DNA of 44,602 nt from an uncultured Spirochaetaceae bacterium. GTDB lineage: Bacteria; Spirochaetota; Spirochaetia; SZUA-6; DRHE01. Shown piece after piece: positions 347-42,237 of the stretch. The DNA lies in NCBI GenBank assembly GCA_964389305.1, contig CAYMEK010000018.1:22203-66804 (forward strand), read 5' to 3'. Within the stretch, counting starts at the first letter, position 1, and every line of letters begins with the position of its first letter. The notes beneath the pieces were generated by a model. That model searched no databases. It had not been told where the DNA came from and was given only the letters and a program-made list of their open reading frames with translations. Both the position numbers and the translations under genes were made by a program.

Positions 347-2131
347 ATGTCTAAAGCAAATACTGCGTTGATCTCAAAAGTTGTCAAGGAGTACGGAAAA
401 GATCCGCACCGCTTGATGGATATCGTGCGGGATATTCACGCGCAGGAAGGCTATCTATCCGACGACGCAGTGGACGGCATCGCCAAGGCCCTGGGCATTC
501 ACAGAGTGCAGGTCCAGGACATGGTGAGCTTCTATTCCTTCTTCGACCGCGAGCAGGCGGGCAAGTGCACCATCCGCCTCAGCAACTGTGTTGTGGACCG
601 GATGCATGGTATGGAGGAAGTGGCGAAAGCCTTCGAGAAGGAGCTGGGCATCCCGGTCGGCCAGACTACGGAGGACGGGATGATTAGCCTGAGGTACACT
701 TCCTGTACCGGAATGTGCGACCAGGCTCCGGCCGCCCTGGTCAACGGGATAGTGATAACCGGGCTCAAGCCGGATGATGTACCGGCCATCGTGGCGGCGA
801 TCAGGAAAGAAGGGGGCAGGGTCAGCAAGGGCGAGCTTTTCCCCAACGCCGACGTAGAGCCGAACCTGCGCCAGGCAGGGCCGGTGGTGATGGCACCTTT
901 CGAGAACGGAACCGCCATTCGCCAGGCCTTGAATATGAAGCCGGAGGAGGTGATCGAGGAGATCAACAAAAGCCGGCTGCGCGGGCGCGGCGGCGCAGGG
1001 TTTCCCACCGGTATGAAGTGGAGCTTCTGCCGCAAGGCCAAGGGCACCCACTACATCATCTGCAATGCGGATGAAGGGGAACCGGGCACCTTCAAAGACC
1101 GGCTGATCCTGACCGAGCAGGCCGACCTGCTGTTCGAGGGCATGACCATCGCCGGTTATGCGCTCGGCGCGGGAGAAGGCCTTCTGTATCTGCGCGCCGA
1201 GTACAGCTATCTCTGGCCCCACCTGGAACAGGTGCTGGCCCGCCGCCGCCGCCACGGCCTGCTGGGCGAGAACATCGCCGGCCGGGAGGATTTTGACTTC
1301 GATATCCGCATTCAGCTCGGCGCCGGCGCCTACGTCTGCGGCGAGGAATCGTCGCTGATCGAGAGCCTGGAAGGCAAGAGGGGCGCTCCCCGCGACCGGC
1401 CGCCCTATCCCGTTCAGAAGGGCTACCTGGACCAGCCGACCTCGGTCAACAACGTGGAGACACTCTGCTGCGCCGCCCGGGTACTGGAAAAGGGCGGTGA
1501 GTGGTTCGCCCGCTACGGGACCCAGGAATCGACCGGCACCAAGCTGCTGAGCGTTTCCGGCGACTGCTCCCGGCCCGGCGTTTATGAAGTCGAGTACGGA
1601 ATCACGGTCGGCCAACTGCTGAAGCTGGTGGGCGGCGAAGGCGCCCAAGCGGTGCAGGTAGGCGGACCCTCGGGGCACTGTCTGGCCCCCAAAGACCACG
1701 GCCGTAAAATCAGCTTCGAAGATATTCCCACCGGGGGATCGGTGATCGTCTTCGGGCCCAAGAGGGACCTGCTCGAGCAGGTTCTGGCGTTTACCGAGTT
1801 CTTCGTGGAGGAGTCCTGCGGCTGGTGCGTTCCCTGCCGGGTCGGCACCACGCTGCTCAAGATGAAAATGGAGAAAATCCTCGAGGGAAAGGGAACGGCC
1901 TCCGATCTGGAAGAGCTGCGGAAGCTCGGTAACACCGTGAAGACGATGAGCCGCTGCGGACTGGGACAGACGGCGGCCAACCCGATTCTGACCACCCTGC
2001 AGAACTTCCCCGCCCTGTACAAGCAGCGCATCACCGACCGGGCCTTCATCCCGTATTTCGATGTAGAGGGCGCTTTCAGCGAGTACTGTGCGGCGACGGG
2101 CAGAAAGTTCGTGGATGTAGAGGAGGTATGA
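347..2131 (+). CDS. hoxF: NAD(P)-reducing [NiFe]-hydrogenase diaphorase subunit HoxF, with a NuoE-like 2Fe-2S N-terminal domain fused to a NuoF-like FMN/NAD/4Fe-4S domain
   Basis: 594-aa ORF. It carries the C-x3-C motif CTGMCDQAPAALVNG (NuoE-type), the NuoF glycine-rich motif GRGGAGFPTGMKW, and the C-terminal cysteine cluster ESCGWCVPCR. It sits in an operon with hoxU, hoxY and hoxH. Confidence 0.9.
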   Translation: MSKANTALISKVVKEYGKDPHRLMDIVRDIHAQEGYLSDDAVDGIAKALGIHRVQVQDMVSFYSFFDREQAGKCTIRLSNCVVDRMHGMEEVAKAFEKELGIPVGQTTEDGMISLRYTSCTGMCDQAPAALVNGIVITGLKPDDVPAIVAAIRKEGGRVSKGELFPNADVEPNLRQAGPVVMAPFENGTAIRQALNMKPEEVIEEINKSRLRGRGGAGFPTGMKWSFCRKAKGTHYIICNADEGEPGTFKDRLILTEQADLLFEGMTIAGYALGAGEGLLYLRAEYSYLWPHLEQVLARRRRHGLLGENIAGREDFDFDIRIQLGAGAYVCGEESSLIESLEGKRGAPRDRPPYPVQKGYLDQPTSVNNVETLCCAARVLEKGGEWFARYGTQESTGTKLLSVSGDCSRPGVYEVEYGITVGQLLKLVGGEGAQAVQVGGPSGHCLAPKDHGRKISFEDIPTGGSVIVFGPKRDLLEQVLAFTEFFVEESCGWCVPCRVGTTLLKMKMEKILEGKGTASDLEELRKLGNTVKTMSRCGLGQTAANPILTTLQNFPALYKQRITDRAFIPYFDVEGAFSEYCAATGRKFVDVEEV

Positions 2132-2841
2132 GGATGGCAGACAAAGTGAGAATTATCATCGACGGGCAGTCCGTCCAGGCCGCTGCGGGTCAAACGGTCC
2201 TCGAAGCGGCCAGCGAGGCCGGGATCTACATTCCACACCTATGCTTCCACGAGGAGTTGACCCCGGGCGGGCACTGCCGGGTGTGTACGGTAAAGGTAAA
2301 CGGCAAACCGATCAACGCCTGCACCATGGTGGTGGCCGAGGGTATGGTCGTCGAGAACAACACCGAAGAGCTGAACGAGATGCGCAAGAACATCATAGAG
2401 ATGCTGTTCGTGGAGGGAAACCACATCTGCCCGGCCTGCGAAAAGAGCGGCAACTGCGAGCTGCAAGCCCTGGCCTATCGCTTTCAGATGATGGTCCCCG
2501 GTTATCCGTACCTGTTTCCGAAGAAGGAGTTGGACGGCAGCCACCCCAACTTCTTCATAGACCGAAACCGCTGCGTGCTCTGCGGACGCTGCGTCCGCTC
2601 GTCCATGGAGGTCGACGGCAAACGGGTATTCGGATTCGAAGGCAGAGGGATCAACAAGCGCCTGATCGTAGACGCCCGTCACGGACTATCCGAAACCGAC
2701 CTGAAGGCGGCGGACAAGGCGGCCAGCTACTGCCCTACGGGCAGCTTGATGGTCAAGCGGGTGGGCTGGAAAATGCCCATAGGCACCCGTAAGTTCGACA
2801 AACAGCCGATCGGCGCCGACATAGAAGGAAAGAGAGGTTGA
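2128..2841 (+). CDS. hoxU: Hydrogenase diaphorase iron-sulfur subunit HoxU (NuoG N-terminal-like, 2Fe-2S plus 4Fe-4S)
   Basis: 237-aa ORF overlapping the hoxF stop. It has the cysteine clusters CRVCTV, CPACEKSGNCELQ and CVLCGRCVR, typical of the NuoG/HoxU N-terminal ferredoxin domain. Confidence 0.85.
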   Translation: MRMADKVRIIIDGQSVQAAAGQTVLEAASEAGIYIPHLCFHEELTPGGHCRVCTVKVNGKPINACTMVVAEGMVVENNTEELNEMRKNIIEMLFVEGNHICPACEKSGNCELQALAYRFQMMVPGYPYLFPKKELDGSHPNFFIDRNRCVLCGRCVRSSMEVDGKRVFGFEGRGINKRLIVDARHGLSETDLKAADKAASYCPTGSLMVKRVGWKMPIGTRKFDKQPIGADIEGKRG

Positions 2842-3389
2842 TCATGGCCAAGGTAAAGGTAGCAACGACGGCACTGACCTCCTGCTTCGGATGTCATATG
2901 TCGATTCTCGATATCGACGAGCGCCTGCTCGATCTGATCGAGCTAGTGGAGTTTGACAAGTCCCCCATCGACGACAAAAAGCAATTTACCGGCCCTGTGG
3001 ACGTGGGCATCATTGAGGGAGGGGTCTCCAACGACGAGAACCTGGAAGTGGCCCGGGAGTTCAGAAAGCACTGCCAGATACTGATATCCATCGGGGAATG
3101 CGCCATCGAGGGAAATATCCCCGCGTACCGCAACATGGTGCCGCTGAAGGAATGCCTGGAAGAGGCCTACCTCAACGGACCAACGGTGGTGAACCCTGCG
3201 GGGAAGATCCCCGACGACCCGGACATCCCCATTCTGATGAACAAGGTCTATCCGGTCCATGAAGTGGTCAAGGTGGACTACTTCATGCCGGGTTGTCCGC
3301 CCCCGGCAGACCAGATCTGGGCGATCCTATCGGCCCTGCTGACAGGCAAGCCGATCGAGCTGCCCTACGAGTACCTGAAGAAGGATTAA
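2838..3389 (+). CDS. hoxY: Group 3 [NiFe]-hydrogenase small (delta) subunit HoxY
   Basis: 183 aa. Its N-terminal TSCFGCHMS cysteine motif and short length match group-3 small subunits. It overlaps the hoxU stop, which suggests translational coupling. Confidence 0.85.
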   Translation: MIMAKVKVATTALTSCFGCHMSILDIDERLLDLIELVEFDKSPIDDKKQFTGPVDVGIIEGGVSNDENLEVAREFRKHCQILISIGECAIEGNIPAYRNMVPLKECLEEAYLNGPTVVNPAGKIPDDPDIPILMNKVYPVHEVVKVDYFMPGCPPPADQIWAILSALLTGKPIELPYEYLKKD

Positions 3390-3405
3390 AGGGAGAGAGC
3401 AAGCG

Positions 3406-4854
3406 ATGAGCACTGCGCTTAAAGATAAGACAAGAAAAATCGTCATCAGCCCGGTGACGCGGGTGGAGGGGCACGGTAAGGTCACCATCCGCCTGGACGA
3501 GAAAGGCAAGGTCGATTACGCCCGTTTTCACATCGTGGAGTTCCGGGGCTTCGAGCGCTTTGCCCAGGGGCGCTTCTATTGGGAGATGCCGGTGTTGATC
3601 CAGCGCCTGTGCGGGATCTGCCCGGTCAGTCATCACCTCTGCGCGGCCAAGGCTACCGACGTGATCGTCGGCGCAGACAAGATCCCGGTCACGGCGGAGA
3701 AGATGCGCCGGTTGATGCACTTCGGCCAGACCCTTCAGTCCCACGCCCTGCACTTCTTCCACCTCTGTTCACCGGATTTTCTCTTCGGTTTCGATGCCGA
3801 TCCGGCCGTTCGAAACGTGATCGGGGTGGCCCAGAAGCACCCCGACCTGGCCAAGATGGCCATACTGATGCGCAAATACGGACAGGAGGTGATCAAGGCC
3901 ACGGCCGGCAAGAAGATCCACGGTACCGGGGCCATTCCGGGAGGGATCAATAAGAACCTGTCGATCGAGGAGCGGGACTTCTTGAGAAAGGACGTCGACC
4001 AGATAGTCCAGTGGTCTGTTGATGGATTGAACCTGTTCAAGAAGATCTTCCACGACGATGCCAAGTACCTGTCCGGCTTCGCCGCCTTCGACTCCAATCA
4101 CCTCAGTCTGGTGAGGGCCGACGGCTGCCTGGACATCTACGACGGGCTTTTGAGGGCCAAGGCGGCGGACGGCAAGATCATCTTCGACGGTGTGGCGCCC
4201 AAGGATTACCTGGAGTACATCCGTGAAGAGGTGAGGCCCTGGAGTTATATGAAGTTCCCCTTCATAAAGAGCCTGGGTATGGAGAAGGGCTGGTACCGAG
4301 TGGGACCTTTGGCCCGGATCAACAACTGCGATTTTATCGACAGCCCGCTGGCCGAGAAGGAGCGGCAGGAATTCATGGGCTTGAGCGGAGGCAAGCCGAA
4401 CAACTCCAGCCTGGCTTACCACTGGGCCCGTTTGATCGAGACGCTGTATTGCGCCGAGAAGATCAAGGAGATGCTCGACGACAAGGATCTTCAGGGCAGC
4501 GACCTGGTGACCGAAGGCCGTCATCGCAGCGAGGGCATCGCCATTCTCGAAGCGCCGCGGGGAACGCTGTTCCATCACTACCGGGTGAACGACACCGATC
4601 AGATCGTCATGGCCAACCTGATCGTGTCTACTACGAACAACAACGAGCCGATGAACCAGGCCGTACAGTGGGTGGCCAGGAACGAGCTGGAAGGAAAGGA
4701 GATCACGGAGGGGCTGCTCAATCACGTGGAGGTGGCCATCCGGGCCTACGATCCCTGCCTGAGCTGCGCGACCCATGCGGTGGGCCGGATGCCCCTGGCC
4801 GTACGCCTCGAAGGTCCCGATGGGATCGTGATCGACGAACGGGTAAAGGACTAG
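3406..4854 (+). CDS. hoxH: [NiFe]-hydrogenase large subunit HoxH
   Basis: 482 aa. It has the N-terminal RVEGHG and RLCGICPVSH (CxxC) motifs. The C-terminus is DPCLSCATH (the DPCxxCxxH Ni-ligand motif) followed by an extension that the maturation endopeptidase would cleave. Confidence 0.9.
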   Translation: MSTALKDKTRKIVISPVTRVEGHGKVTIRLDEKGKVDYARFHIVEFRGFERFAQGRFYWEMPVLIQRLCGICPVSHHLCAAKATDVIVGADKIPVTAEKMRRLMHFGQTLQSHALHFFHLCSPDFLFGFDADPAVRNVIGVAQKHPDLAKMAILMRKYGQEVIKATAGKKIHGTGAIPGGINKNLSIEERDFLRKDVDQIVQWSVDGLNLFKKIFHDDAKYLSGFAAFDSNHLSLVRADGCLDIYDGLLRAKAADGKIIFDGVAPKDYLEYIREEVRPWSYMKFPFIKSLGMEKGWYRVGPLARINNCDFIDSPLAEKERQEFMGLSGGKPNNSSLAYHWARLIETLYCAEKIKEMLDDKDLQGSDLVTEGRHRSEGIAILEAPRGTLFHHYRVNDTDQIVMANLIVSTTNNNEPMNQAVQWVARNELEGKEITEGLLNHVEVAIRAYDPCLSCATHAVGRMPLAVRLEGPDGIVIDERVKD

Positions 4855-4969: not shown

Positions 4970-5737
4970 GTGGTCACCGAGCTGGAGAAGCTCGAATTAG
5001 CCGGGTTGGCCTTGGATGCAGACTATCAGCTCGCAATCGAGCATGCGGCCGACCTGGCTCAGGCAGACCGGGTGGTATTCGTAGACGCGGCGTTGAAAGG
5101 GCCCGAACCCTTCCAGGTAAGGCGGCTGGAGCCCGCGGCGGCCGTCGAGTTCACGACCCACGAGGTCAGGCCGGAAGCTGTACTGGCCATCTGCGAGCAA
5201 ACCTACGGGCGCAAACCCGAGGCGGTGCTGATAGGCATACGAGGCTACTCCTTCGAGTTCGGCGAGGAGCTCACGGAGAAGGCCCGGGAGAACAAGAGCA
5301 AGGCTTTAGAGCTACTATTACTACTTATCGATCAGTGGAGAGGGAAAATTATGGCAGGTGAAACCGGAAAAACGGTCCTCATCATCGACGACGACCCGGA
5401 TATCCGGGCGGCTACGCGCATCGTTCTGGAGTCGGCCGGCTTCGTCGTGGGGGAAGCTTCTACGGGAGAGGAGGGTCTGAAAACGGCCCGAAAGATCAAC
5501 CCGGATGTGATCCTCCTGGACCTGATGATGGAAACAGTGGATGCCGGGAGCAAGGTCTCGACCCAGCTCAAGGAGGCCGGGTTTACCGCCCCCATTTTCC
5601 TGCTTAGTTCCGTGGGGGATGCGGTGCGGTATAATATCGATGCAAAAGAGCTCGGACTGGCCGGTATCTTTCAGAAGCCCATCGACCACAAGACGCTCCT
5701 GTCTACCTTGAGGGCGGAGCTGGGGATCAAGGATTAA
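4970..5737 (+). CDS. hoxW: Hydrogenase maturation endopeptidase (HoxW/HycI/HybD family) reading in frame into a CheY-like receiver (REC) domain. The true start lies upstream of the GTG at 4970, at or before about 4910, with no canonical start codon. The REC domain may have its own start at ATG 5351.
   Basis: The same frame upstream of 4970 encodes QVLVLGYGNPGRRDDGLGPAVV. This carries the essential GNxxxDDGxG motif, and VFVDA and THEV supply the other Ni-binding residues. From ATG 5351 (RBS GGAGAGGG) the sequence encodes a complete receiver: IIDDDPD, LLDLMM and KP. There is no stop codon between the two parts. Confidence 0.6.
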   Translation: MVTELEKLELAGLALDADYQLAIEHAADLAQADRVVFVDAALKGPEPFQVRRLEPAAAVEFTTHEVRPEAVLAICEQTYGRKPEAVLIGIRGYSFEFGEELTEKARENKSKALELLLLLIDQWRGKIMAGETGKTVLIIDDDPDIRAATRIVLESAGFVVGEASTGEEGLKTARKINPDVILLDLMMETVDAGSKVSTQLKEAGFTAPIFLLSSVGDAVRYNIDAKELGLAGIFQKPIDHKTLLSTLRAELGIKD

Positions 5738-11395: not shown

Positions 11396-11890
11396 CTACG
11401 GGAACAGGGACTTGATGGCTTGAATCGCCTCTGAGGGGCTTTGCACCTCACGAACGAACAGGCCGCGGCCCCTGTTTTGTTCAGGGTCGAGCCGCCAGGA
11501 CTGCAGGCCGATCACGGGAATCCCGGCGGCATTGGCCAGGGCGATCTCGGACAGGGTTCCGTAGGCCCCGGATACAGCCACCGCCGCCTGGCTGCTCTTG
11601 ACCACCAGCACGTTGCGGGCCTCTCCCATTCCGGTAACCACGGAATAGCTCAGGTAAGGATTGGCTTCGGCCCTGGTGTTGCCGGGCAAGATACCGAGAG
11701 TTACGCCTCCCTTGGAGCGCGCGCCACGGCAGGCCTGTTCCATTACTCCGCCCAGGCCGCCGCAGACCAGGGTCCAGCCCTCCGCGGCGATCAGCCCGCC
11801 CAACTCGTAGGCCAGAGAAGCGGCCGCCCGATCGCAGCGGCCGGACCCGATCACCCCGACATACAATGCGCCTGCCGCCTCTCCAGGCAT
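11396..11890 (-). CDS. TIGR00725-family (LOG/SLOG-like Rossmann fold) protein
   Basis: 164 aa. The pattern is VIGSG ... LVCGGLGGVMEQA ... GILP ... VVTGMGEARN ... AVAVSGAYGTLSEIALA, which matches the LOG-like PGGxGTxxE core. Confidence 0.7.
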   Translation of the reverse strand: MPGEAAGALYVGVIGSGRCDRAAASLAYELGGLIAAEGWTLVCGGLGGVMEQACRGARSKGGVTLGILPGNTRAEANPYLSYSVVTGMGEARNVLVVKSSQAAVAVSGAYGTLSEIALANAAGIPVIGLQSWRLDPEQNRGRGLFVREVQSPSEAIQAIKSLFP

Positions 11891-12999: not shown

Positions 13000-13764
13000 T
13001 CAAGAAAAGGGAAGAGATGGCGGCGGCCGGCGGCTTTCACGCCCGCCCGGCTGCAGCCAGGCGGCGGTGCCGGGTCGCAGCCAGGCCCGGCTGCGCCTGA
13101 CGTTGTACCTCCTGACCAGCCTGTGAAGCGCCTGCGGTGAGCGCTGCAGACACGCGGAGGTCCAACGGGAGTAGCGGTCGAGCAGCTCGCTGGCAGGAAG
13201 CACGACCAGGCGTGGAGCCGCGAAAAAAGACCATCTTCCCGGATACAGGGCGAACGCCGCCTGGATAATGTCGTTCGACAGAACCCGCTTCAGGTAGCCG
13301 AAGCACCTCCGCCCGGGCAGCTTCTCCTGTAGAAACGTAAAACCGATACGCCGTTTGCCGCGCTGCACGACCAGCTCGACCTGGCCGACCCCGTAGCCGC
13401 CAAAGTACCAGGTGCTGCCGGGCGGGTTGCGGCTGGACTCTTTCCTGCAGACGGCCCGCAGCAGGTTCGATTCTGCCGCCGGCGAGCCCGACAGGGCGTT
13501 TAGGTACAGCTTCGGCGTCTTTCTTGCCCGTAACGCACCGGCGGCCGGCAGGGGAGGAAGAAGCCAGAGCAGGCCGGCCTCTTCCAGCTCGGCGATCCGG
13601 CTGCGCACGACCCGGCCGGAGACGGCGAGACGCTTGCCGACAGCCGCGACGCTCAACGGCCGTCCGTGCCACTCGGCCAGCGCCGCCAGGGTGGTTTCAA
13701 TATGGTCGCTTCTCAAGGTCGGGCCTCCGATTCGAATCGTTCCCGGAGGAGGGGTACCGCTCAT
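13000..13764 (-). pseudogene. Remnant of a DUF4143-family AAA+ ATPase (COG1373). Only the C-terminal winged-HTH plus PD-(D/E)xK-like part is present, and the N-terminal ATPase domain is missing.
   Basis: The sequence shows LSVAAVGKRLAVSGRVVRSRIAELEEAGLLWLLPP (HTH), then KTPKLYLNALS and YFGGYGVGQVELVV (equivalent to YFWRTxxGxEVDFV). These are collinear with the C-terminal half of the family, as I recall it. No Walker A/B is present. The 5' side is intergenic and the C-terminal tail is Arg-rich and unconserved. Confidence 0.4.
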
Positions 13765-14068: not shown

Positions 14069-16972
14069 ATGAAGGTTCTATACACCGTATTCATCAAGCC
14101 GATAGAGTTATTCCTCGTTCTTGTTTTCGAGAACCTCGTGAATGCTGGCGCAGGTTATGGCCCGGCGCTTTTACTGTTGAGCCTCGTAGTTACGATCGTT
14201 ACGGCTCCCCTGTACTACCTCGCTGAAAAGTGGAGGTCTCAGGAAGAGGCCGTCCAGAGGCGGATGGCGAAGGATGTCGCGAGCATAAGGGCTCACTACA
14301 ACGGGCAAAAGCGGTTTTATCTTCTCAGGAACGCCCATCGCCTTTACGGGTACGGGCCGATCTCCCCCCTGCGCGCTTCCATGGGCCTCATTATCCAGAT
14401 CCCGTTCTTTCTCGCCCCCTACCTGTATCTATCGCGCTATACCGGATATGCCGGAACATCTTTTTTGTTCCTGAAAGACCTTGCGCGTCCGGACGGCCTG
14501 CTCTGGGGGGCCAACCTCCTGCCCTTCGTCATGACCGTGGTCAATGTGGCCGCTTCCCTGCTCTATGCGCGCGGCAGGTCGGCCAGGGGAACCCTTCAAC
14601 TCCTGGCCCTTGCGGGCTTTTTTCTTGTGGTCCTCTACGACAGGCCGTCCGGCCTGCTCCTGTACTGGACCATGAACAACCTCCTCTCGATCCCGAAAAA
14701 CGCGGTCCTGGCAAGAATGCTGCCGTCCCCGCGGGGGGCCGCCGAGGAGGTCGGGGATTCGGGGGCGCAAGAGTCGGTTTGGAACCTGATACGGAAATAC
14801 CTGGAACCCGCCAAGGGACCCCTGCTCGTCTTTCTGCTCTTCGGTATCCAGGTCTACTGGCAGCTGTATTTCGACCGCAGCTTCAAATACGCCATCGCGG
14901 CCACGGCGGCAGCCGGTCTTATCCTGTCGTGCGTCCTTGTCCTGCGCCGCATCCGTCGCGGACCGCCGCCCTCGAAAGCGGCCTTGATCGCCCTGGCGGC
15001 GCAGTGGGCCCTTTTCGGTTTCGCGGCGTACCTGCTTGTATTCGCCCGTATTCAAAACGCGTATATCTCCAATACGAACATCAAGCTGCTGACGGTGTTG
15101 ATTCAGGATGTGATCATAGGCACTTCCCTTATGGGTCTCCTGGCGCGGAGAGCGGCGCCGGAGAAGGAAGTCGAGATCCTTCACCGCACGAGGCTCTTTA
15201 TTTTTGCTTTCGCCTTCCTTCTGTTGTATCTGTTCGTCATATCGCCCGCCCTGATCTATTTCTCTTCTCCTCGAGACATCGGTATGGGTTTGGGGGAGCT
15301 GCTCCTGCGCAACTCTTTGGCGGCGGTGCTGCTCTTTGTACCAGGCCTCGCCGTTTTCCGCCTGGCGGGCGTCCGCGGGCGTCCGCGGGCGGTCTGGGTC
15401 GTCGTGGCCGTCATCCTGGTCGTCCTTGTCTTCAACTACATCATCCCCGGAGACTACGGGACCCTGGACGAGCTGCACCTGGAAAAGGACTATCTGCTCG
15501 AGAGTCCGCGGATCCCGGCGATCCTTCTGGATCTGGTCGTGATTGCCGCATCCTGCGCGGTGGCCTGGGTCATCGTGAGGAAGCGGGCAGCCATTGTCGT
15601 GCCATGCCTCGTGGCGTTCACGGCCGCCTTCACCGTTCAGACCGCCGTCGCCTCTTTCAGGACGGAGTGGAAGGTTGAAGACGCCGCACCGTCTCATCAG
15701 GAGGCCAGCCTGCCTGCGGAAAGTAGGGACGTCCACAGGTTCTCAACGAGCAAGGCAAACATCATCTTCGTGATCGCGGATATGTTCAACGGCAACTACA
15801 TCGGCAAGCTGGTGCGGGAAAACCCGGAATACCGCGATGCCCTGGACGGCTTTACCTGGTACCCGAATACGCTTTCGATCTCCTCCACCACGGTGACCTC
15901 CATGCCGGCGATGCTGGCGGGGCCCGCGTACTTTCCGCAAGCCATGAATCGGATGCCAGGAAAGGGGCGCGAAAAGTACGAAGGGGCGGTGCGCGAGTTC
16001 TTTGAAGCGATGCTCGCGAGCGGGCTGGACGTATCGACGGTGGACCTGACGTACACGGATCCGACCGCGCTTTTCGGGCGGCACAGCGGGCGGCTGCGGA
16101 CGAGCTCGTCCAGCGCCTATGTGGGTTACTGGAAAAAGCGCACCGGCTACGACGCAGGCGAGGAGGTGGATTCGGGAAAGAACAGGCTCCTCGTGATGGT
16201 GGCGTTGTTCCAGTCCGCTCCCGTCATGGTGAAGACCGCGATTTACGACGCGGGAAGCTGGCTTATTTTCAGAAAGTCCTACCAGATCCGCAAGATGGCC
16301 AGAAACGCCGTAAAGACCTATGCCTACCTGGACCTGCTTCCCGAGCTGTCTTCCACGGCGGACACGGCGGGCACGTTCAAGCTCATCGACACGCAATTCA
16401 CGCACGAACCTTTCGGCGTGAACCGCCAAGGCTCCATCATCAGGGACGAGTTCCCCGATCCGGAGTCCGGGACCAGGAGTTTCGTGGACGGGCGCGGCGC
16501 CTACAATACGGCGAAGAAGATGGTCGATTTTCTGCTCGACTGGACCGATTGGATGAAGGCAAACGGCGTCTATGACAACACGTTCATCGTCGTGGCGTCG
16601 GACCACGGCAACAACGCGCAGGACAGCGGCTTGTCCCTTCCTCCCGGCCTGGATAATCCGCTCAATCGGTGGGAGATCTCCAAAGCGTACCCCCTGCTCT
16701 TGATCAAGAGGTTCGGGGCCTCGGGGCAGCTCCGGGTGGACGAGAGGTTCCTCAGCAACGCCGACACGGCCCGGATTATCCACGCCGCTGCGGGGGTGAA
16801 AGGCGCCCTGGGTTCGGATCCGACCGTGGGAACGCCGGAAACCGGCAGGACGCTCACCTACAGCAGATACTACGGTAAATGGGACGATTTCATGAAAAAC
16901 GATCGGGCTACATTGAGCACCTATACCGTGAAGGATGACCTGCGCGTAAGCGGCAATTGGAGCAAGGAGTGA
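14069..16972 (+). CDS. Multidomain membrane protein: an N-terminal YidC/Oxa1-family insertase domain, a polytopic transmembrane region, and a C-terminal LtaS/EptA/MdoB-like sulfatase-family (alkaline phosphatase superfamily) phosphotransferase ectodomain
   Basis: 967 aa. Residues 1-215 match the three YidC core blocks of B. subtilis SpoIIIJ, recalled from memory: GYGPALLLLSLVVTIVTAPL, GYGPISPLRASMGLIIQIPFFLAPY and PSGLLLYWTMNNLLSIP. Seven or more further transmembrane helices follow. From about residue 545 the sequence carries sulfatase-fold motifs: NIIFVIADMFNG, NTLSISSTTVTSMPAMLAG (the nucleophile region) and FIVVASDHGNNA. Confidence 0.8.
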   Translation: MKVLYTVFIKPIELFLVLVFENLVNAGAGYGPALLLLSLVVTIVTAPLYYLAEKWRSQEEAVQRRMAKDVASIRAHYNGQKRFYLLRNAHRLYGYGPISPLRASMGLIIQIPFFLAPYLYLSRYTGYAGTSFLFLKDLARPDGLLWGANLLPFVMTVVNVAASLLYARGRSARGTLQLLALAGFFLVVLYDRPSGLLLYWTMNNLLSIPKNAVLARMLPSPRGAAEEVGDSGAQESVWNLIRKYLEPAKGPLLVFLLFGIQVYWQLYFDRSFKYAIAATAAAGLILSCVLVLRRIRRGPPPSKAALIALAAQWALFGFAAYLLVFARIQNAYISNTNIKLLTVLIQDVIIGTSLMGLLARRAAPEKEVEILHRTRLFIFAFAFLLLYLFVISPALIYFSSPRDIGMGLGELLLRNSLAAVLLFVPGLAVFRLAGVRGRPRAVWVVVAVILVVLVFNYIIPGDYGTLDELHLEKDYLLESPRIPAILLDLVVIAASCAVAWVIVRKRAAIVVPCLVAFTAAFTVQTAVASFRTEWKVEDAAPSHQEASLPAESRDVHRFSTSKANIIFVIADMFNGNYIGKLVRENPEYRDALDGFTWYPNTLSISSTTVTSMPAMLAGPAYFPQAMNRMPGKGREKYEGAVREFFEAMLASGLDVSTVDLTYTDPTALFGRHSGRLRTSSSSAYVGYWKKRTGYDAGEEVDSGKNRLLVMVALFQSAPVMVKTAIYDAGSWLIFRKSYQIRKMARNAVKTYAYLDLLPELSSTADTAGTFKLIDTQFTHEPFGVNRQGSIIRDEFPDPESGTRSFVDGRGAYNTAKKMVDFLLDWTDWMKANGVYDNTFIVVASDHGNNAQDSGLSLPPGLDNPLNRWEISKAYPLLLIKRFGASGQLRVDERFLSNADTARIIHAAAGVKGALGSDPTVGTPETGRTLTYSRYYGKWDDFMKNDRATLSTYTVKDDLRVSGNWSKE
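15365..15394 (+). repeat. Tandem 10-bp direct repeat (GGGCGTCCGC, two perfect copies plus a partial third) inside the YidC-LtaS-like CDS
   Basis: The sequence is ggcgggcgtccgcgggcgtccgcgggcggtc, which encodes AGVRGRPRAV. The unit length is not a multiple of 3. Confidence 0.6.
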
Positions 16973-17120: not shown

Positions 17121-19118
17121 ATGGAGGCAGCAGATACGAATGCGGCAGATGCGGCCGAAGACACGCCGGTGCAGCCTCAAAACCGCAAGTACCTGGGCTC
17201 CAAGTACCGCCTGCTGGATTTTATCACCGAAACCATCCTGACCCGCACCGGAGGAATCGAGGTATTCGTCGATCCGTTCGCCGGCACCGGCGTGGTCGCC
17301 GCCGGGTTCCGGCGGTACGCCGTCAAGATCATTGCCAACGATCTGCTGTACTCCAATTACGTGGCCAACCGGGCCTTCCTGACCTCCACTCCGGCGGAGG
17401 TGGACCTGGACAGGGTGGGCGATCTGCTGGAGGAGCTGAACGCCTTGAGCCCGGTTCGAGGCTACGTTTTCGCCAGCTACGGCGGCAGCTACTTCACGCC
17501 CGAAAACGCCGCCAAGATCGATGCGGTGCGGGAGGCCATCGCCTCGTACCGGCGGGCCGGGCGCTGCAGCGAGCAGGAAGGCTACCTGCTGCTCACCAGC
17601 CTGCTGCTGGCGGCGGACAAGGCGGCCAACACGGTCGGGCAGTACGACGCTTTTCTCAAGCACCTAGACGCTCGCTCCGACGGCCGCCCGGAGGGCCCGG
17701 ATCAGGAGCGCTGCGGCAGGCACCTGGTCGACGGCAATGTGCGAAAGCCCCTGCACCTCAGGCTTCCGGCCGTGGAGCTGGAGGGAAACGGCGGAAACGA
17801 AGTCTACAACGAGGACGCCAACCAGCTTCTCCGGAGGCTTGCGGCGGACGTTTTGTACCTCGATCCTCCCTACAACAGCCGGCAGTATATCGACTGCTAC
17901 CATGTGCTGGAGAATATCATGCGCTGGGACAAGCCGAAGCTGTACGGCAAGACTCGCAAGTTCAGGCGGGAGCAGCTCAAGAGCCGCTACTCCCGCAAGA
18001 ACCAGGCCGCCGGGGCCCTGGCAGAGCTGGTCCAGGCGGCCCGGGCGCGGCACATATACTTGAGCTACAACAGCGAAGGTCTCATCAGCGACGCCGAGAT
18101 CGAGGAAATCCTGGCCAGCAGGGGCCCGGTGGAGGTGTTGGAGAAGCCGTACCCGGTTTTCGGAAACGGAGCGGGCAGCTCCCGCAAGCGTGTGATCAGC
18201 GAGCGGATCTTTTACTGCCGGGTGAGCCGGCCGGGCGCCTTCTCGGGCAGGAAGATCGAGCTGTTCACCGCGGGCGGGCAGAGCCGGGGCTACTATTCAC
18301 CCCGGAATCGTCTGAACGATCTGACCGGCAAGGAATGGGTCTACTGGAGCAAGAGCGTAATCAACAAGCCGTATCCCCCGAATCTGCAGCACAGGCTGCG
18401 CTCACGCCACGGCGGACAGAAACCTCCCGACCTGTGCGGGGACCTGATCGAGGTTTTCACCAAACGGGGCCAGCGGGTTCTCGATCCCTTCGCCGGCGTC
18501 GGGGGGACCCTCCTGGGAGCGAGCTTGAGAGGAAGGAAAGCGGTCGGTATCGAGCTCAACCCGCAGTGGGTCGAGATCTACCGCCGGGTATGCGCTCTGG
18601 AGAAAATCCCCGAGCAGACGATGATCTGCGGGGACAGCCGCAGCGAGCTTGTTCGGCTCGCCGAGCAGGAAGCCGAACGGGACAGGGCCTTCGATCTCAT
18701 CCTGACGGATGTCCCCTACTGGCGGATGGATCGGGCCCGGCGCAGCCGGGGAAAGTTCAAGCGGGTGGGAGAGCCTCAGCGAGAGCGCCGTCTGTCCAAG
18801 CTGGCGGCCTTCAACGACGGCAGCTATCAAAGCAAGGAGCAGTGGCTCGGGCAGCTGCAGGAAGTGTTTCAGGCTTCGATCCGCCTCCTCAAGCCCAAAG
18901 GCTACCTGGTCGTATTCATCGGCGATATGTACCACTCCGGCCGCTACCATTTCCTCAGCGCAGACCTGTCCGCCGCGCTATCTGCTCTCGGGCTGACCCT
19001 CAAGGGTAATCTCATCTGGTACGATGTCAGCAAGTCCCTGCACGTGTACGGATACCAGTACGAGTATATTCCCTCCCTGATTCACCAGAGCATCCTGGTA
19101 TTTCGCAAAGAGCAATAA
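17121..19118 (+). CDS. Fused double DNA methyltransferase: an N-terminal D12-class (Dam-like, alpha group) N6-adenine methyltransferase domain plus a C-terminal gamma-type N6A/N4C methyltransferase domain (PF01555-like)
   Basis: 665 aa. Domain 1 has KYLGSKYRLLDFI, motif I DPFAGTGVV and motif IV LYLDPPYNS. Domain 2 has motif X HGGQKPPDL, motif I VLDPFAGVGGT, an atypical motif IV LILTDVPYW, and LLKPKGYLVVFIGD. No restriction endonuclease gene is adjacent. Confidence 0.85.
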   Translation: MEAADTNAADAAEDTPVQPQNRKYLGSKYRLLDFITETILTRTGGIEVFVDPFAGTGVVAAGFRRYAVKIIANDLLYSNYVANRAFLTSTPAEVDLDRVGDLLEELNALSPVRGYVFASYGGSYFTPENAAKIDAVREAIASYRRAGRCSEQEGYLLLTSLLLAADKAANTVGQYDAFLKHLDARSDGRPEGPDQERCGRHLVDGNVRKPLHLRLPAVELEGNGGNEVYNEDANQLLRRLAADVLYLDPPYNSRQYIDCYHVLENIMRWDKPKLYGKTRKFRREQLKSRYSRKNQAAGALAELVQAARARHIYLSYNSEGLISDAEIEEILASRGPVEVLEKPYPVFGNGAGSSRKRVISERIFYCRVSRPGAFSGRKIELFTAGGQSRGYYSPRNRLNDLTGKEWVYWSKSVINKPYPPNLQHRLRSRHGGQKPPDLCGDLIEVFTKRGQRVLDPFAGVGGTLLGASLRGRKAVGIELNPQWVEIYRRVCALEKIPEQTMICGDSRSELVRLAEQEAERDRAFDLILTDVPYWRMDRARRSRGKFKRVGEPQRERRLSKLAAFNDGSYQSKEQWLGQLQEVFQASIRLLKPKGYLVVFIGDMYHSGRYHFLSADLSAALSALGLTLKGNLIWYDVSKSLHVYGYQYEYIPSLIHQSILVFRKEQ

Positions 19119-19139: not shown

Positions 19140-20489
19140 ATGGCAGGGGTATTCAAGACTTACGATATTCGGGGTATATACGGAAAGGATATCGATACCG
19201 CCCTGGCCTACAGGATAGGCAGGGCCTTCGCTCGCTTCTTGAGAAAGGACTCCTATCTGCTAGGCTACGACGCCCGTACTCATTCGGAGGAGCTGTACCA
19301 GGCGCTGGGTCACGGCCTGGTGGCGGAAGGAAAAACCGTGCGGGGCATCGGCATGGTTTCCACACCGCAGCTACACTACTACCAGATGAGCGACGGTTAC
19401 GAAGGGGGGGTCATGGTAACGGCTTCCCACAATCCGCCGGAGTATCATGGATTCAAGCTCTACGGAAGCGAAGGAGGTTCGATCAGCTACGACAAGGGCC
19501 TGCGCGACATCGAGCAGATCGTATCCGACCTGGAGGAGGAACCGGCGCTTCCGGGAGGATCGTTCGAAGAGGTCGATCGCATCGAGGAGTACGTCGATTT
19601 CATCAGCGCTCCGCTGAAAGGCCGGAAGATCGGTTTGAAAGTAGTCATCGACGTGGGCAACGGCTCCGCCGGGCGTGTTTTTCGCAGCCTGAGTGAGAGA
19701 CTGGGTCTGGATGCCCATATTCTGAACGAGCAGCCGGACGGCTCGTTCCTCAACCGCGATCCCAATCCACTCAAAGCGGAGAGCAGGCTTCATGCGGCCG
19801 CCAAGGTGCTCGAGCTCGGGGCCGAGATCGGCGCTCTTCTGGATGGAGACGGGGACAGGGTCGTCTTTCTGGACGAGCACGGCGAGAGCGTCGAAAACTA
19901 CTACGTCGCGGCCCTGATTGCCGAACAGCTCCTGGCCGAGCACCCCGGCGCGGCCGTCGTTTACGACTTGATCTCCTCTCGGGCTCTTCCCGAGCGCATC
20001 GAAGAGCTGGGAGGAAAGCCGGTGGTCTCGAGGGTGGGTTATACGTTTATCTACGACGCCATGGTCGAAAGCCGGGCGGTCTTCGGGGCCGAAACCTCAG
20101 GACACGGTTATTTCAAGGTCACCGACAGCTACTACACGGAATCCGCCGCCTACGGCCTGGCTGTGCTTATAAAGCTGCTGCAAAGCCGGGAGATGCCCCT
20201 TTCCGAGCTGCTGGCTCCACTGCGCCGGCGCTATGCGCAGTCGGGGGAGATCAACATCGAGGTCTCCGACAAGGACAGAGTGATGGAGGCGGTGGAGCGT
20301 CATTTCACCGGGACGGGAGCCAGGGTCAGCAAGCTCGATGGGCTGAGCGTAGAGTTCGGCGAGTACTGGTTCAATGTACGTCCGAGCAACACCGAGCCGT
20401 TGATTCGTTTGCGCCTGGAGGCGGTCAACCGGGAAACCGCGGAGAGCAAAAGCCGAGAGATAGCCGCGCTCCTGCGAGGGTTCGCCTGA
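19140..20489 (+). CDS. Phosphomannomutase/phosphoglucomutase (alpha-D-phosphohexomutase family)
   Basis: 449 aa. The active-site loop is GVMVTASHNPPEYHGFKL. The N-terminus KTYDIRGIYGKDI and the GDGDR metal-binding loop are present. Confidence 0.9.
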   Translation: MAGVFKTYDIRGIYGKDIDTALAYRIGRAFARFLRKDSYLLGYDARTHSEELYQALGHGLVAEGKTVRGIGMVSTPQLHYYQMSDGYEGGVMVTASHNPPEYHGFKLYGSEGGSISYDKGLRDIEQIVSDLEEEPALPGGSFEEVDRIEEYVDFISAPLKGRKIGLKVVIDVGNGSAGRVFRSLSERLGLDAHILNEQPDGSFLNRDPNPLKAESRLHAAAKVLELGAEIGALLDGDGDRVVFLDEHGESVENYYVAALIAEQLLAEHPGAAVVYDLISSRALPERIEELGGKPVVSRVGYTFIYDAMVESRAVFGAETSGHGYFKVTDSYYTESAAYGLAVLIKLLQSREMPLSELLAPLRRRYAQSGEINIEVSDKDRVMEAVERHFTGTGARVSKLDGLSVEFGEYWFNVRPSNTEPLIRLRLEAVNRETAESKSREIAALLRGFA

Positions 20490-27367: not shown

Positions 27368-30300
27368 ATGAACGGAAACCGGAAACATACCTCCATTATC
27401 ATACTGCTGGCGAGCATTTCAGTCGTTTTTTTCACCTGTAAGAATCCATTCACCCGGGTCGGTCTGGGCGACGAGGTAGACCTGGATGTTCCCGATCTTT
27501 CGATCGACAGCCACGAGAACGGGGACTTCGTGAGCTTCGTAGACGGGGATTTCGAGATCTACGGCCGGTACGCAGACGATATCGAGGTGGCCAGCGTCAC
27601 GATCTCCTTCGACGGGGGGGACAGCTTCGCCAGCACCGAGCTGGACAGCAAGAACAGGAAGTGGAGCTTCCTGGTCCGCCAGGCCGACGGCTACACAGAC
27701 GGAGAAAAAGAGCTGATCATCCAGGCCACCGATACTTCGGACAAGGTCATCGAGAAGCGCCTGTTCCTTTTCTTCGACACCGCGCCGCCGCTGGTGCTGG
27801 TTACGGTGCCCTACGAATACGAGTACGCGCCCCCCCTGCAGAAAAACACCTTCAATGGTGAGTTCAGCCTGAAAGGCGAGGCGGCCGACAGCTTCGGCAT
27901 CAAGCGGGTCACTGTTGATGTGTACGACTCACCCATGGGCGCGAGCGACCCCCTTCAATCCTACACCGCGGCCGGCACCGCTAGCTGGACCGCCTTGATC
28001 GACAGCACGGACCTGACCATAGGCAGCGCAGAGTTCGTTTTCCTGGTCACCGCGGAGGACAACGCCGGGAATAGCAATACCTATGTCTACAACTACAAGG
28101 ACGTGTGCGAAGCCAACGACCCCGACCCCATCACGGTGGAGCAGCTATACGATATCGAACAGGGGACGGACCTGGGCCTGGGGATCACGCCGGCGAGCCT
28201 GCCGGGCTACAGGAAATATCACGATCCGGGTGAGAATCCGAAATTTACGCTGCAGATCGATCAGGCCGAGGACCTGCCCCAGTTCGTGGTAAGCAATCCC
28301 GACGAAAGCTCGCCTCCGGATCAGAACATCCTGGGAGCCAGCGCCAACGGCATCGGACTGGTGGAGGACGACGACGGGGTGAGCGTGTCCAGCATCGAGA
28401 TCTGCATCGACGGCGGCGGCTGGGTCTCGCCGACCCAGACGGTTCCGGCAAGCGGCAGCGCCCTCTCGGTACGCTGGCAGCATGATCTGTCCGGGCTTTC
28501 CGAAGGACTGCATACCATACAGGTTCAGGCTCAGGATGTAGGCACTAAATCGAATAGCAGTGCGGAGGTCGGCTTTTTCGTGGACCTCGGGGCTCCCTCG
28601 GTGGAGATCACCTCGCCTGCTCAGGGAAGCTACCACAACGGGGATATCCTGGTTCAGGGCACCGCCTCGGACACCCAGGGGGTAACCAGCGTGAAGGTCA
28701 GCACCGACGGGGGTGCGGACTATTACGACGCCACCGATACCGGGGGAGGCTTCAGCACCTGGCAGTACAGCGCAGCCGTTCCCGGAGACGGGCTCACCGA
28801 CGGCAGCCGGACCATCAAGGTTATGGCCCAGGACGGCTCCGCCAAGATCGCCTATACCAATCTGCAGGTGATCATAGACACCCAGGATCCGTCGGTTTCC
28901 TTCCTCACTCCGGCCAACTCCAGCACGGTCAACGGCGAGGTGCTGCTCCGGGGAACCGCCGCGGACAACACCCAGATCAGCAAAGTCGAGCTGAAGGTGG
29001 GCAAGAACGATCCCTGGATCGAGATGAGCGGCACCTACAACTGGGAGTATGCCATCGACAGCGTGAGCTACGCCAATGCCACCCACGCGGATGAGACCCC
29101 GCCGGGAAGCGATGTCTGGCGGCTGAACATCCGGGCCAGGGCGACCGATACGGCGGGCAACGTCACCGAGCTTACCAATTACAACCTGTTCATCGACAAC
29201 GACCTGGACAAGCCCACGGTCAACGTCATCTCGCCGCTGGACGGGCAGAACCTGGGCGGATCGGTCCTGGTCAGCGGTACGGCCTTCGACGACGATGCGG
29301 TGCACCACGTGGAGATGAAGCTGGACCTTAATCATGACGGAGACTTCCTGGATCAGATCGACCTCAACGGCGACTTCGATACCCTGGACGATTTCGAAGA
29401 CGAGCAGCAGTGGTACACGGTCAGCGGCACCACCACCTGGACTCAAAACCTAAACACCGCCGGCGAGCTGTATCAGACCGAGCCGGGGCACGACGGGCAG
29501 GTTACTATCCGGGTACGGGCCGTGGACACCAAGGATGGCCTCACTCCCGGTCTGGCCGGCAACTACCAGGAGCTTACCATACACTTCGACGACACCATCC
29601 CGCGGCTGGAGAACGTAAGCCATTCCTCCGGCGACTATGTCAAGGGGATCTTCAACCTGACTGCGGACGTGCTCGATGATATCCGCGTGGACGAAATCTA
29701 CATCAGCTATGACGGCGGAGTGAACTACGACGACGTGCTGAACGACCCGACCTACGCCGGGACGTTCGTCCAGAACGATATCAACGATTACGATATCGAT
29801 ATACCCATCAACACCATCGCCACCTCCAGCGGTATCCTGTACCTGCGGCTGAAGGTCGTGGACAACGCCAACTACCAGAAGCTGGAGTACATCAACCTGA
29901 ACGTGGACAACGTGTATCCGGAGGGGATCTATACCGGCGACAGCCTGGATATTTATGGAAGCGGCCTCCACTCCCGGGTTCAGGGCACGGCCACGGACGC
30001 GGAGAGCGTCAGCGGCATCGAGCAAATCCAGGTCTACTTCGTACGGGGTGCGAGCGTGTATAATCCCCAGACAGGCGGGACAATCGGAGTGGGAAGCACC
30101 GATTTCGGCGACGGTAACGGCAGCGTGGCCTACACGGTCAATCCGAGCTACAAGATCATCATCGACAATCGCTACGAGCTGGGCAACGACTCGGGCGGAA
30201 ACGGCGACGGGGACGGCTACGACGAGTCCCTGACCCTGGCCGGATCTACTTACAACTGGTGGGCGGAATTCGATTCCACCCACATCCCCGACGGAACCAT

Positions 30301-39070: not shown

Positions 39071-39737
39071 GGTCGGCAAGGAATACCGCAGCGATCATAC
39101 TGTGGTGCACGCCCTGCGGGGCGTCAGCCTGGAGATAGGCAGCGGCGAGTTTCTCTCCGTAGCCGGTCCCTCCGGATCGGGTAAAACGACCCTGCTCAAC
39201 CTGATCGGCTGCCTGGACAAGCCCTCGGAAGGGGAAATCTACATCCAGGGGGAGCCGATCTCGGGAATGAGCAAGAAAGAGCTGGCACAGCTGCGGCGGC
39301 ACAAGTTCGGCTTCGTGTTCCAGACCTTCAACCTGATCCCGGTGCTTTCGGCTTTCGAGAACGTCTCCTTCGCCCTGTCCCTGCTGGGCGTGGAGGGAGA
39401 GGATCTAAAGCGCCGGACCGCCATGATGCTGGAAGAGGTGGGCTTGAAGGGCCTGGAAGCACGGCGGCCGGGCGAGCTTTCCGGCGGCCAGCAGCAGCGG
39501 GTGGCCGTTGCCCGGGCCTTGATCAAGGAGCCGCAGCTCGTGCTGGCCGACGAGCCCACGGCCAACCTGGACTCCGAGACCGGCCGCGAGATCCTGGACC
39601 TGATGGTGGAGCTGAACAGCAGACACGGGACCACCTTCGTCTTTTCCACCCACGATCCAATGGTGATGGAGTACGCCCGCCGCCTGGTGCGGCTGCACGA
39701 CGGGCGGATCACCGGCGACGAGAGGAGGAAGCGATGA
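39054..39737 (+). CDS. ABC transporter ATP-binding protein, LolD/MacB-type
   Basis: It has Walker A GPSGSGKTT, signature LSGGQQQRVAVARAL, Walker B LVLADEPT, and the H-loop. I chose the start at ATG 39054 (RBS GAAGGAG) rather than the 38991 ORF-track start, which overlaps the SPFH gene. Confidence 0.9.
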   Translation: MIKIDKVGKEYRSDHTVVHALRGVSLEIGSGEFLSVAGPSGSGKTTLLNLIGCLDKPSEGEIYIQGEPISGMSKKELAQLRRHKFGFVFQTFNLIPVLSAFENVSFALSLLGVEGEDLKRRTAMMLEEVGLKGLEARRPGELSGGQQQRVAVARALIKEPQLVLADEPTANLDSETGREILDLMVELNSRHGTTFVFSTHDPMVMEYARRLVRLHDGRITGDERRKR

Positions 39738-40966: not shown

Positions 40967-40981
40967 TGGAGAGAGAGTGAC

Positions 40982-42214: not shown

Positions 42215-42237
42215 GCGAGCGAGAAAGGAGATATGGT

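Follow-up and report, generated by a model that had tools for sequence, protein, structure and literature searches.

A YidC-type domain joined to an alkaline-phosphatase-superfamily enzyme domain in a large, uncharacterised family of bacterial membrane proteins

Several described membrane systems bear on the gene considered here. Insertases of the YidC/Oxa1/Alb3 type, represented by B. halodurans YidC2 (3WO6/3WO7) and E. coli YidC (3WVF), hold a positive charge in their groove that has been termed 'strictly conserved' in 'all homologs' (PMC8920935). Polytopic enzymes such as the lipoteichoic acid synthase LtaS and the glycerol-phosphate transferase GacH work through a small set of metal ligands and a threonine nucleophile, E255/T300/D475/H476 in LtaS and E488/T530/D711/H712 together with H650 in GacH. 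In the GtrB/GtrA/GtrC and CsbB/GtcA/YfhO systems (PMC7389260) the work is divided among a loader in the cytoplasm, a small flippase and a polytopic transferase that acts outside. Here we describe a gene that joins features of these systems. It lies at 14069..16972 on the plus strand of a 44,602-nucleotide stretch of DNA from an uncultured Spirochaetaceae bacterium (contig CAYMEK010000018.1; the whole stretch is called the window below), and its 967-residue product carries a YidC-like domain at its N-terminus and an alkaline-phosphatase (AP)-superfamily domain at its C-terminus.

Architecture of the fusion protein

The open reading frame (ORF) is complete, with an ATG start, 967 codons plus a stop and no internal stops. 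A sequence-only reading made earlier had proposed a covalent fusion of a YidC/Oxa1 domain to an LtaS/EptA-like enzyme, and the domain identities, their order and the fusion itself all held; the motifs it quoted are present in the translation, and the non-overlapping boundaries fell close to those predicted. An AlphaFold2 model built from a 79-sequence family alignment was graded confident (predicted local distance difference test, pLDDT, 89.3; predicted template modelling score, pTM, 0.75) and resolves the protein into four distinguishable parts. These parts, and the codons discussed below, are as follows.

14069..16972, plus strand: whole protein, in the order YidC-like domain, nine-transmembrane domain, periplasmic AP-superfamily domain
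14069..14152, plus strand: N-terminal helix, residues 2-25, ending with a G-x-Y-G motif (DSSP assignment on the model)
14156..14710, plus strand: YidC/Oxa1 five-transmembrane core with cytoplasmic coiled-coil hairpin, residues 30-214
14192..14194, plus strand: Thr42 codon, at the site of the YidC groove arginine (E. coli R366, B. halodurans R72), from profile alignments
14666..14668, plus strand: codon of an invariant residue, from the alignments (functional context in PMC8920935)
14720..14809, plus strand: cytoplasmic linker, residues 218-247, acidic and of low confidence (pLDDT 51-68; conservation 0.19)
14810..15661, plus strand: nine-transmembrane middle domain, residues 248-531
15701..16969, plus strand: extracytoplasmic AP-superfamily (sulfatase-fold) domain, residues 545-967
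15779..15781, plus strand: Asp571, putative metal ligand where the first beta-strand ends (D in 78 of 79 sequences; weak alignment to the first Asp of the sulfatase 'TDD')
15890..15892, plus strand: Thr608, putative catalytic nucleophile at a helix N-terminus by DSSP (T in 76 and S in 3 of 79)
16403..16405, plus strand: His779, where LtaS/GacH-type enzymes have their phosphate-binding His (H in 78 of 79; by analogy with GacH H650)
16601..16606, plus strand: Asp845-His846, the D-H metal-ligand pair of SDHG (79 of 79; aligned to the SDHG/DHG of sulfatases and phosphonate monoester hydrolases)

That the fusion is a genuine single protein is as good as certain. A frameshift or assembly artefact is excluded in practice, since the frame is continuous and the same architecture, at 850-1,000 residues, recurs in thousands of independent sequences that include finished genomes; the linker and nine-transmembrane domain are moreover co-linear across all close homologues. 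Split versions are known from other lineages, and apart from these it is prior suspicion alone that would favour a merger, through sequencing or assembly error, of adjacent yidC-like and sulfatase-like genes at this one locus; we regard it as vanishingly improbable. Long ORFs of 346-482 residues overlap the gene (14230-15678, plus strand; 14429-15736 and 15743-16783, minus strand), but their translations are rich in Arg, Pro and Gly, as is usual for high-GC DNA, and give no evidence for extra genes.

Within the 79-sequence alignment, the most conserved section of the protein is the N-terminal YidC-like domain (0.56), ahead of the catalytic C-terminal domain (0.39), the middle transmembrane domain (0.28) and the linker (0.19). 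Separate Pfam matches had been expected at the two ends of the protein. For PF02096 (60KD_IMP) one was obtained at residues 30-214, with 65.7 bits against a gathering score of 35 and coverage of profile positions 1-161 of 163, whereas for PF00884 (Sulfatase) the score stayed short of the cutoff (22.3 versus 25 bits) and the match was confined to residues 813-909. By fold and by Pfam, the N-terminal domain is in the YidC/Oxa1 superfamily, but it lacks the hallmark residue and stays below the curated NCBI cutoff. YidC models alone matched it in NCBIfam, every one below its own cutoff: yidC_oxa1_cterm (TIGR03592) gave 64.4 against 84.3 bits, and the YidC equivalog models scored far under theirs. 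The model predicts a conserved five-transmembrane core with the cytoplasmic helical hairpin (CH1/CH2). The N-terminal helix is the counterpart of the amphipathic helix ahead of the first core transmembrane helix in YidC, the profile alignments to 3wo6 and 4utq beginning at profile positions 7 and 19; upstream of it there is neither a signal peptide nor an additional transmembrane segment.

The sequence-only reading had expected a YidC groove with its conserved arginine, and on this point it did not hold. The position is occupied by Thr in the window protein and by Thr (41), Asn (28) or Ser (8) among the 79 aligned sequences, never by Arg or Lys, and 124 further ORFs from genome loci have Thr (43), Asn (42), Ser (38) or Cys (1). 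The groove arginine is therefore absent in 79/79 and 124/124 members examined, and the groove-facing part of the same helix carries no Arg or Lys. Groove polarity is retained through T/N/S42, T201, N203 and N204; the domain keeps a membrane-exposed hydrophilic groove without its arginine. Invariant residues of its transmembrane helices include Q110, P112, D142, P152, M155, N159, Y199, W200, N203 and N204, and in the hairpin A52, E53, W55, E59, G79, R82, R91 and Y95 are highly conserved. An invariant Trp stands where E. coli YidC has Y517 and S. mutans YidC2 has W234. The E. coli protein can do without its arginine, R366, if residue 517 is aromatic or hydrophilic, but S. mutans YidC2, with Trp at the equivalent position, still requires the arginine (PMC8920935), so that by sequence the family domain may or may not be a competent insertase. 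Compared with canonical YidC/Oxa1/Alb3 proteins, the family also has nine further transmembrane helices and an enzyme domain appended, and in place of a basic C-terminal ribosome-binding tail, which is missing, an acidic and disordered linker follows the core.

The nine-transmembrane domain has no recognisable relative among solved structures. Its loops obey the positive-inside rule: those at 293-305, 359-369, 433-440 and 504-507 are rich in Arg and Lys, as on the cytoplasmic side, and alternate with loops poor in both. Together with the five core helices this makes 14 predicted transmembrane helices. Since the YidC-like core ends in the cytoplasm and nine more crossings follow, the C-terminal domain is predicted to lie outside the membrane.

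That soluble domain is predicted to adopt the AP-superfamily alpha/beta fold, and PF00884 is a precomputed match for many homologues, scoring 30.2 and 29.6 bits in members from two other loci (L073 and L040). In profile searches, H779 and the SDHG motif align with sulfatases, phosphonate monoester hydrolases, LtaS and MCR-1, an alignment that is solid at residue level; the LtaS profile alignment starts at the profile position of His779. In the model, D571, T608, H779, D845 and H846 lie at the ends of strands and helices, as expected for this superfamily, and the ligand logic of the domain matches that of LtaS and GacH. Thr608 also aligns, weakly, with the formylglycine Ser of 7p24. A formylglycine sulfatase was considered and rejected: the C/S-x-P-x-R signature is absent, and the sequence reads T-T-V-T-S-M-P with Thr608 at the nucleophile position, within a family consensus of T-x-x-S/G-x-P/A. 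In contrast to S1 formylglycine sulfatases and phosphonate monoester hydrolases, the family domain has a Thr nucleophile and is tethered behind 14 transmembrane helices. These observations argue for an active, extracytoplasmic phosphotransferase or phosphodiesterase with a Thr nucleophile, which is probably what the domain is, rather than a sulfatase. Its chemistry would be that of a transferase instead of a hydrolase, acting between a lipid donor and an acceptor.

The family and its gene neighbourhoods

Searching 5.8 billion proteins with a word index gave 102 relatives, 850-990 residues long and with the same co-linear architecture, at identities from 97% down to ~20% and with cultured Treponema denticola and T. 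putidum among them. HMMER, run exhaustively over 1.84 billion representatives of 50%-identity clusters, matched 4,809 of them at E<=1e-30. Species genomes of GTDB contain at least 550 relatives, which are found in Spirochaetota (Treponema, Brachyspira, Sphaerochaeta, Leptospirales), Bacteroidales (Draconibacterium, B. uniformis, Odoribacter, Rikenellaceae), Clostridia and Erysipelotrichia (Lachnospiraceae, Oscillospiraceae, Bulleidia) and further in Desulfovibrionaceae, Sutterella, Verrucomicrobia and Neptunomonas. Named members at NCBI are all called 'YidC/Oxa1 family membrane protein insertase' or 'preprotein translocase YidC'. We found no description of the fusion in full-text literature searches, which covered subscription journals incompletely, so that this absence is not proof. 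The sequence-only reading overstated the novelty of the architecture, which by these counts is neither rare nor uncatalogued; what is missing is a functional description. The family is widespread, mis-annotated and functionally uncharacterised, and its architecture is unusual only in that it seems to have gone undescribed.

To characterise the genetic context, 82 loci with a family gene were scanned using hidden Markov models (HMMs) built from the neighbours. At 60 of these loci a TagF-like ORF lay on the strand of a family ORF and no more than 300 nt from it, as judged by a home-made HMM with five seeds applied to ORFs called from stop to stop. Among the other 22, 13 had too little flanking sequence and 8 were without a TagF-like ORF despite at least 1.5 kb on both sides. 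Canonical YidC genes differ here as well, in that their linkage is to housekeeping genes of the rnpA/rpmH type and not to TagF-like genes. In T. denticola (L001, CP051634.1, 1-10844), an array of at least four tandem paralogues is interleaved with two genes for PF04464 proteins (CDP-glycerol glycerophosphotransferases of the TagF type), whose stop codons overlap the following start, and glycosyltransferase and nucleotide-sugar genes come next; judged by this overlap, the TagF-like and fusion genes are predicted to be translationally coupled. A metagenome-assembled genome (MAG) of Spirochaetes (L002) has the order phosphoglucomutase/phosphomannomutase (PGM/PMM), ManC, UDP-glucose dehydrogenase, TagF-like, fusion and a protein with nucleotidyltransferase (NTP-transferase) and aminotransferase folds. 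Desulfovibrio (L005) and an unrelated MAG (L006) share a compact module in which an NTP-transferase plus pyridoxal-phosphate (PLP) enzyme precedes the TagF-like and fusion genes. Glycosyltransferases are absent from these minimal three- or four-gene modules, and the compact modules contain no separate flippase gene.

Tandem arrays reach five paralogues (L038, 8695-22771; another array is L013, 3-16054), and those of four to five sometimes come with one or two TagF-like genes only. Paralogues within an array vary most in the nine-transmembrane domain, where scores against an HMM of that domain run from 34 to 280 bits; this divergence suggests diversified specificity for acceptor or donor. In other lineages the same modules are divided differently. 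A locus from Leptospirales (L073, 1437-5256) encodes separate YidC-like (230 aa), TagF-like (430 aa) and transmembrane-plus-Sulfatase (597 aa) proteins, and one from Clostridiales (L052, 5949-9753) encodes a YidC-like protein of 229 aa followed by a 1,046-aa TagF-like-transmembrane-Sulfatase protein, both confirmed by Pfam. The stand-alone YidC-like proteins of these two loci, encoded at 1437-2126 of L073 and 5949-6635 of L052, likewise lack the groove Arg. That three modules co-travel and are variably fused is a classical sign that they serve one pathway or complex.

The accessory PLP enzyme is itself composite. Its N-terminus is LicC/PntC-like (6pd1, 1jyk) and its C-terminus resembles CobD, a Thr/Ser-phosphate decarboxylase (6oux, E=4e-41 to 8e-52), with a score of 181 bits against TIGR01140 that is under the cutoff. 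Such a LicC-like/CobD-like enzyme suggests a CDP-amino-alcohol, either CDP-ethanolamine or CDP-aminopropanol. Phosphonate tailoring with CMP-aminoethylphosphonate (AEP) through a PntC-AEP-transaminase enzyme like Tde1415 was considered and set aside: the nucleotidyltransferase half alone resembles 6PD1, and the PLP half is CobD-like (6oux, 1lc5), not like the transaminase. In Desulfovibrio (L005, 2350-3408), a gene resembling NAD-dependent glycerol-3-phosphate dehydrogenase, by a weak match to the N-terminal domain only, lies between the cytidylyltransferase/decarboxylase and TagF-like genes, which hints that the cargo alcohol varies among lineages. Taken together, the neighbourhoods indicate that the family and TagF-like enzymes probably act together in phospho-alcohol or teichoic-acid-like chemistry of the envelope.

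A possible relay and its alternatives

We propose that the gene product is a 14-helix inner-membrane enzyme of a large family and would form the outer part of a relay. In most members, a TagF-like CDP-alcohol phosphotransferase would work on the cytoplasmic side, moving a phospho-alcohol from its CDP-activated form to a lipid of the membrane; at some loci this enzyme would be fed by the LicC-like cytidylyltransferase fused to the CobD-like Ser/Thr-phosphate decarboxylase. The uncharged polar groove of the YidC-type domain, possibly with the nine-transmembrane domain, would then bring the anionic head group to the outer leaflet, where the metal-dependent, Thr-nucleophile domain of the LtaS/EptA/OpgB type would pass the phospho-alcohol to an acceptor such as a glycolipid, lipooligosaccharide (LOS) or cell-wall glycopolymer. 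This sequence of loading inside, flipping and transfer outside is, as a whole, quite possible without yet being probable. The assignment of the YidC-like domain as lipid translocator is more doubtful and is offered tentatively. Phospholipid scrambling in vitro is an activity of E. coli YidC, Oxa1 and Get1 (bioRxiv 10.1101/2023.09.01.555937). This, the compact modules without a flippase gene, the Clostridiales protein whose single chain has its TagF domain in the cytoplasm and its AP domain outside, and the loss of the arginine are our reasons for considering a lipid-handling role; loss of the fixed positive charge might ease the passage of a phosphodiester head group. The sequence-only reading had itself suggested that the groove handles a lipid-linked substrate, which is compatible with the TagF linkage and with the split and alternative fusions, and is still something that we infer.

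Compared with described systems, the protein works most like the polytopic phosphotransferases of the LtaS, EptA, GacH and OpgB type, but by its membrane domain it is a member of none of them, and which is nearest by catalytic domain is unclear. The phosphoethanolamine transferases EptA, EptC and MCR-1, together with PbgA (YejM), share its overall logic, with structural similarity scores to the C-terminal domain of 20.6 for EptC, 20.6 for PbgA, 19.1 for EptA and 19.1 for MCR-1. PbgA is not known to have any catalytic activity ascribed to it, and we read the C-terminal domain as unlike PbgA in this respect. The possible amino-alcohol phosphate cargo, suggested by the CobD-like/LicC-like neighbour, would also be similar to that of EptA-type enzymes. 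The transmembrane domains, however, are not homologous, the window protein having no homologue of the five-transmembrane N-terminal domain of LtaS/EptA-type enzymes; sequence similarity is marginal (MCR-1, E=2e-3 with a profile), and the family donor is presumably not bulk phosphatidylethanolamine. The division of labour that we propose is the same as in the GtrB/GtrA/GtrC and CsbB/GtcA/YfhO systems, and there too the components are encoded together and variably fused. The comparison is no more than an analogy: the folds differ throughout (GT-B-like TagF, YidC fold and AP superfamily), and the cargo would be a phospho-alcohol, not a sugar.

Several observations weigh against the proposed relay. 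At sequence level D571 and T608 align only weakly with known active sites, no sequence-profile alignment of the first half of the C-terminal domain to LtaS or EptA being significant (best relevant match E=0.24), and the structural neighbours of that domain are sulfatases as much as transferases. Loss of the arginine alone need not abolish insertase function, the equivalent of residue 517 being Trp here, and the nine-transmembrane domain could equally be the translocating element. The TagF linkage was counted with the home-made profile described above. Moreover, the whole 44.6-kb window contains no TagF-like ORF, and none neighbours the gene of the 97%, 75% and 61% relatives; a TagF gene stands directly upstream of a 50% relative (L009), and the logic of the module is thus carried over from relatives no more than 50% identical. 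The window subclade is an 'orphan' branch of the family. Since its catalytic and groove residues are intact, the window protein is probably functional, and its donor would come from synthesis at another genomic locus or would be an ordinary phospholipid.

The alternatives differ chiefly in the task they give to the N-terminal domain. It could be a private insertase or chaperone of the YidC type, in cis or as a paralogue, for its own nine-transmembrane and periplasmic domains or for a TagF-transferase complex, with no role for lipid. The sequence-only reading put forward such a self-insertion module, the PF02096 match spans the whole profile, and the fold with its CH1/CH2 hairpin and the polarity of the groove are conserved; moreover, E. 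coli YidC functions without R366 if residue 517 is aromatic, and the family has an invariant Trp there. Yet the arginine is essential in S. mutans YidC2 in spite of the Trp, and a charge described as 'strictly conserved' (PMC8920935) is missing from every member examined. LtaS, EptA, GacH and similar polytopic enzymes manage without a private insertase, and the basic ribosome-binding tail is replaced by the acidic, disordered linker. A private insertase also fits poorly with an N-terminal domain that is better conserved than the catalytic domain, is genetically tied to TagF even as a separate gene, and is present in one copy per paralogue in tandem arrays. We therefore consider this reading unlikely, and retain, as a possible if doubtful reading, that the YidC-fold domain is no protein insertase and is dedicated to scrambling or flipping the donor, a phospho-alcohol linked to a lipid.

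The same domain could also serve as a docking scaffold, its hairpin recruiting the soluble TagF-like enzyme while the nine-transmembrane domain or another protein translocates. The highly conserved hairpin residues and the predicted translational coupling of the genes are in keeping with this, as is the fact that the hairpin of canonical YidC binds partners and substrates (PMC8920935). However, most of the invariant residues lie in the transmembrane helices and groove and not in the hairpin alone, and the orphan subclade of the window retains the entire domain without an adjacent TagF, which makes a scaffold quite unlikely. The product, finally, could be teichoic-acid-like, made by LtaS-like polymerisation of a poly(alcohol-phosphate) or by export and ligation of a polymer built by TagF. 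Polymerisation is the classical activity of partners from the TagF family (Pfam PF04464 description), the structural neighbours include LtaS and the lipoteichoic acid primase LtaP, T. denticola is without a lipopolysaccharide pathway and has an unusual glycolipid LOS (PMC3285142), and some loci contain glycosyltransferase and nucleotide-sugar genes. These enzymes are nevertheless missing from the minimal modules of L005 and L006; a YidC-type groove, closed to the periplasm, seems ill-suited to long polymers (PMC8920935); and several paralogues per single TagF gene are better matched by acceptor diversity. A polymer synthase or exporter is accordingly the least probable of these functional readings. 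Transfer of single phospho-alcohols by the relay is the reading that we carry forward, at the strength given above.

The window copy, its surroundings and implications

The sequence-only reading placed the gene in an accessory segment, next to a gene remnant and a double methyltransferase. An accessory segment is not supported by the composition and gene order: GC content around the gene is 0.585-0.605, within the range of the window, and the flanking genes are housekeeping (Iso_dh, Hsp20, PGM/PMM, prfA, prmC, relA/spoT). Gene order is kept in the contig of the 97% orthologue (L004), whose neighbours are the same (Iso_dh, SLOG, Hsp20, fused D12 and N6_N4 methyltransferase, PGM/PMM, PAS histidine kinase and prfA); the 75% and 61% relatives have other neighbourhoods. 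The neighbouring features that bear on these points are the following.

13000-13764, minus strand: 254-aa ORF with no Pfam match above threshold, weak winged helix-turn-helix matches and a DUF4143 match of 16 bits (positions 13-83 of 160)
17121-19118, plus strand: 665-aa fusion of a D12-class N6-adenine methyltransferase (PF02086) and an N6_N4 methylase (PF01555)
19140..20489, plus strand: PGM/PMM gene, the sole neighbour that recurs in glycopolymer-type loci of relatives (L002)

The double methyltransferase is real and has no adjacent nuclease gene; it is also present in the L004 contig, and could be an orphan or a type-IIG-like remnant. For the 254-aa ORF, the sub-threshold winged helix-turn-helix and DUF4143 matches fit a remnant of a DUF4143-type ATPase, but the ORF is conserved intact in L004. 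The PGM/PMM gene may be a vestige of a glycopolymer-type locus.

Other parts of the window hold features of separate interest. A gene at 4970-5737 (plus strand) fuses a HycI-type hydrogenase maturation protease domain to a response-regulator receiver, an unusual pairing, just downstream of a cluster of NuoE/NuoF-like, Fe-S and NiFe-hydrogenase large-subunit genes (347-4854). At 11396-11890 (minus strand), a SLOG cluster-4 (LDcluster4, LOG-like) protein gene adjoins an isocitrate/isopropylmalate dehydrogenase gene, and the same pair occurs near the 61% relative (L088). Two adjacent giant ORFs of 1,778 and 1,587 aa (27368-32704 and 32721-37484, plus strand), rich in Big_7 and Big_13 Ig-like repeats, presumably encode surface adhesins or S-layer-like proteins. 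In series at 38991-42975 (plus strand) are genes for an ATP-binding cassette (ABC) ATPase, two MacB/FtsX-type permeases, each with MacB_PCD, and a LolA-like protein; this is a Lol-like lipoprotein or lipid export cluster, apparently of a spirochaete-type genome.

For the family, the consequences begin with annotation. Thousands of genes of gut, oral and environmental bacteria are labelled 'YidC insertase' on the strength of the first 22% of their sequence, when they are almost certainly envelope-modifying enzymes, and this mislabelling affects both genome annotation and counts of YidC paralogues. The family breaks a supposedly strict YidC feature, the groove arginine, and offers a natural experiment on the lipid scrambling lately reported for insertases of the Oxa1 type. 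If its YidC-like domain does move lipid, it would be the first member of the Oxa1 superfamily with a lipid as physiological substrate. The relay, if true, would amount to an unrecognised three-component system of envelope decoration, its other two parts being the TagF-like loader and the transferase of the AP superfamily, and would be shared by thousands of species, among them oral and gut Treponema, Brachyspira, Bacteroides and Lachnospiraceae. Phospho-alcohol surface groups such as phosphoethanolamine and glycerol phosphate are charge modifications that govern resistance to cationic peptides and recognition by the host. Since the family is represented in pathogens that can be manipulated genetically (T. 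denticola, Brachyspira) and in commensals (B. uniformis), the hypothesis is directly testable, and if the relay is true, it would be a new route by which diderms and monoderms place phospho-alcohols on their surface.

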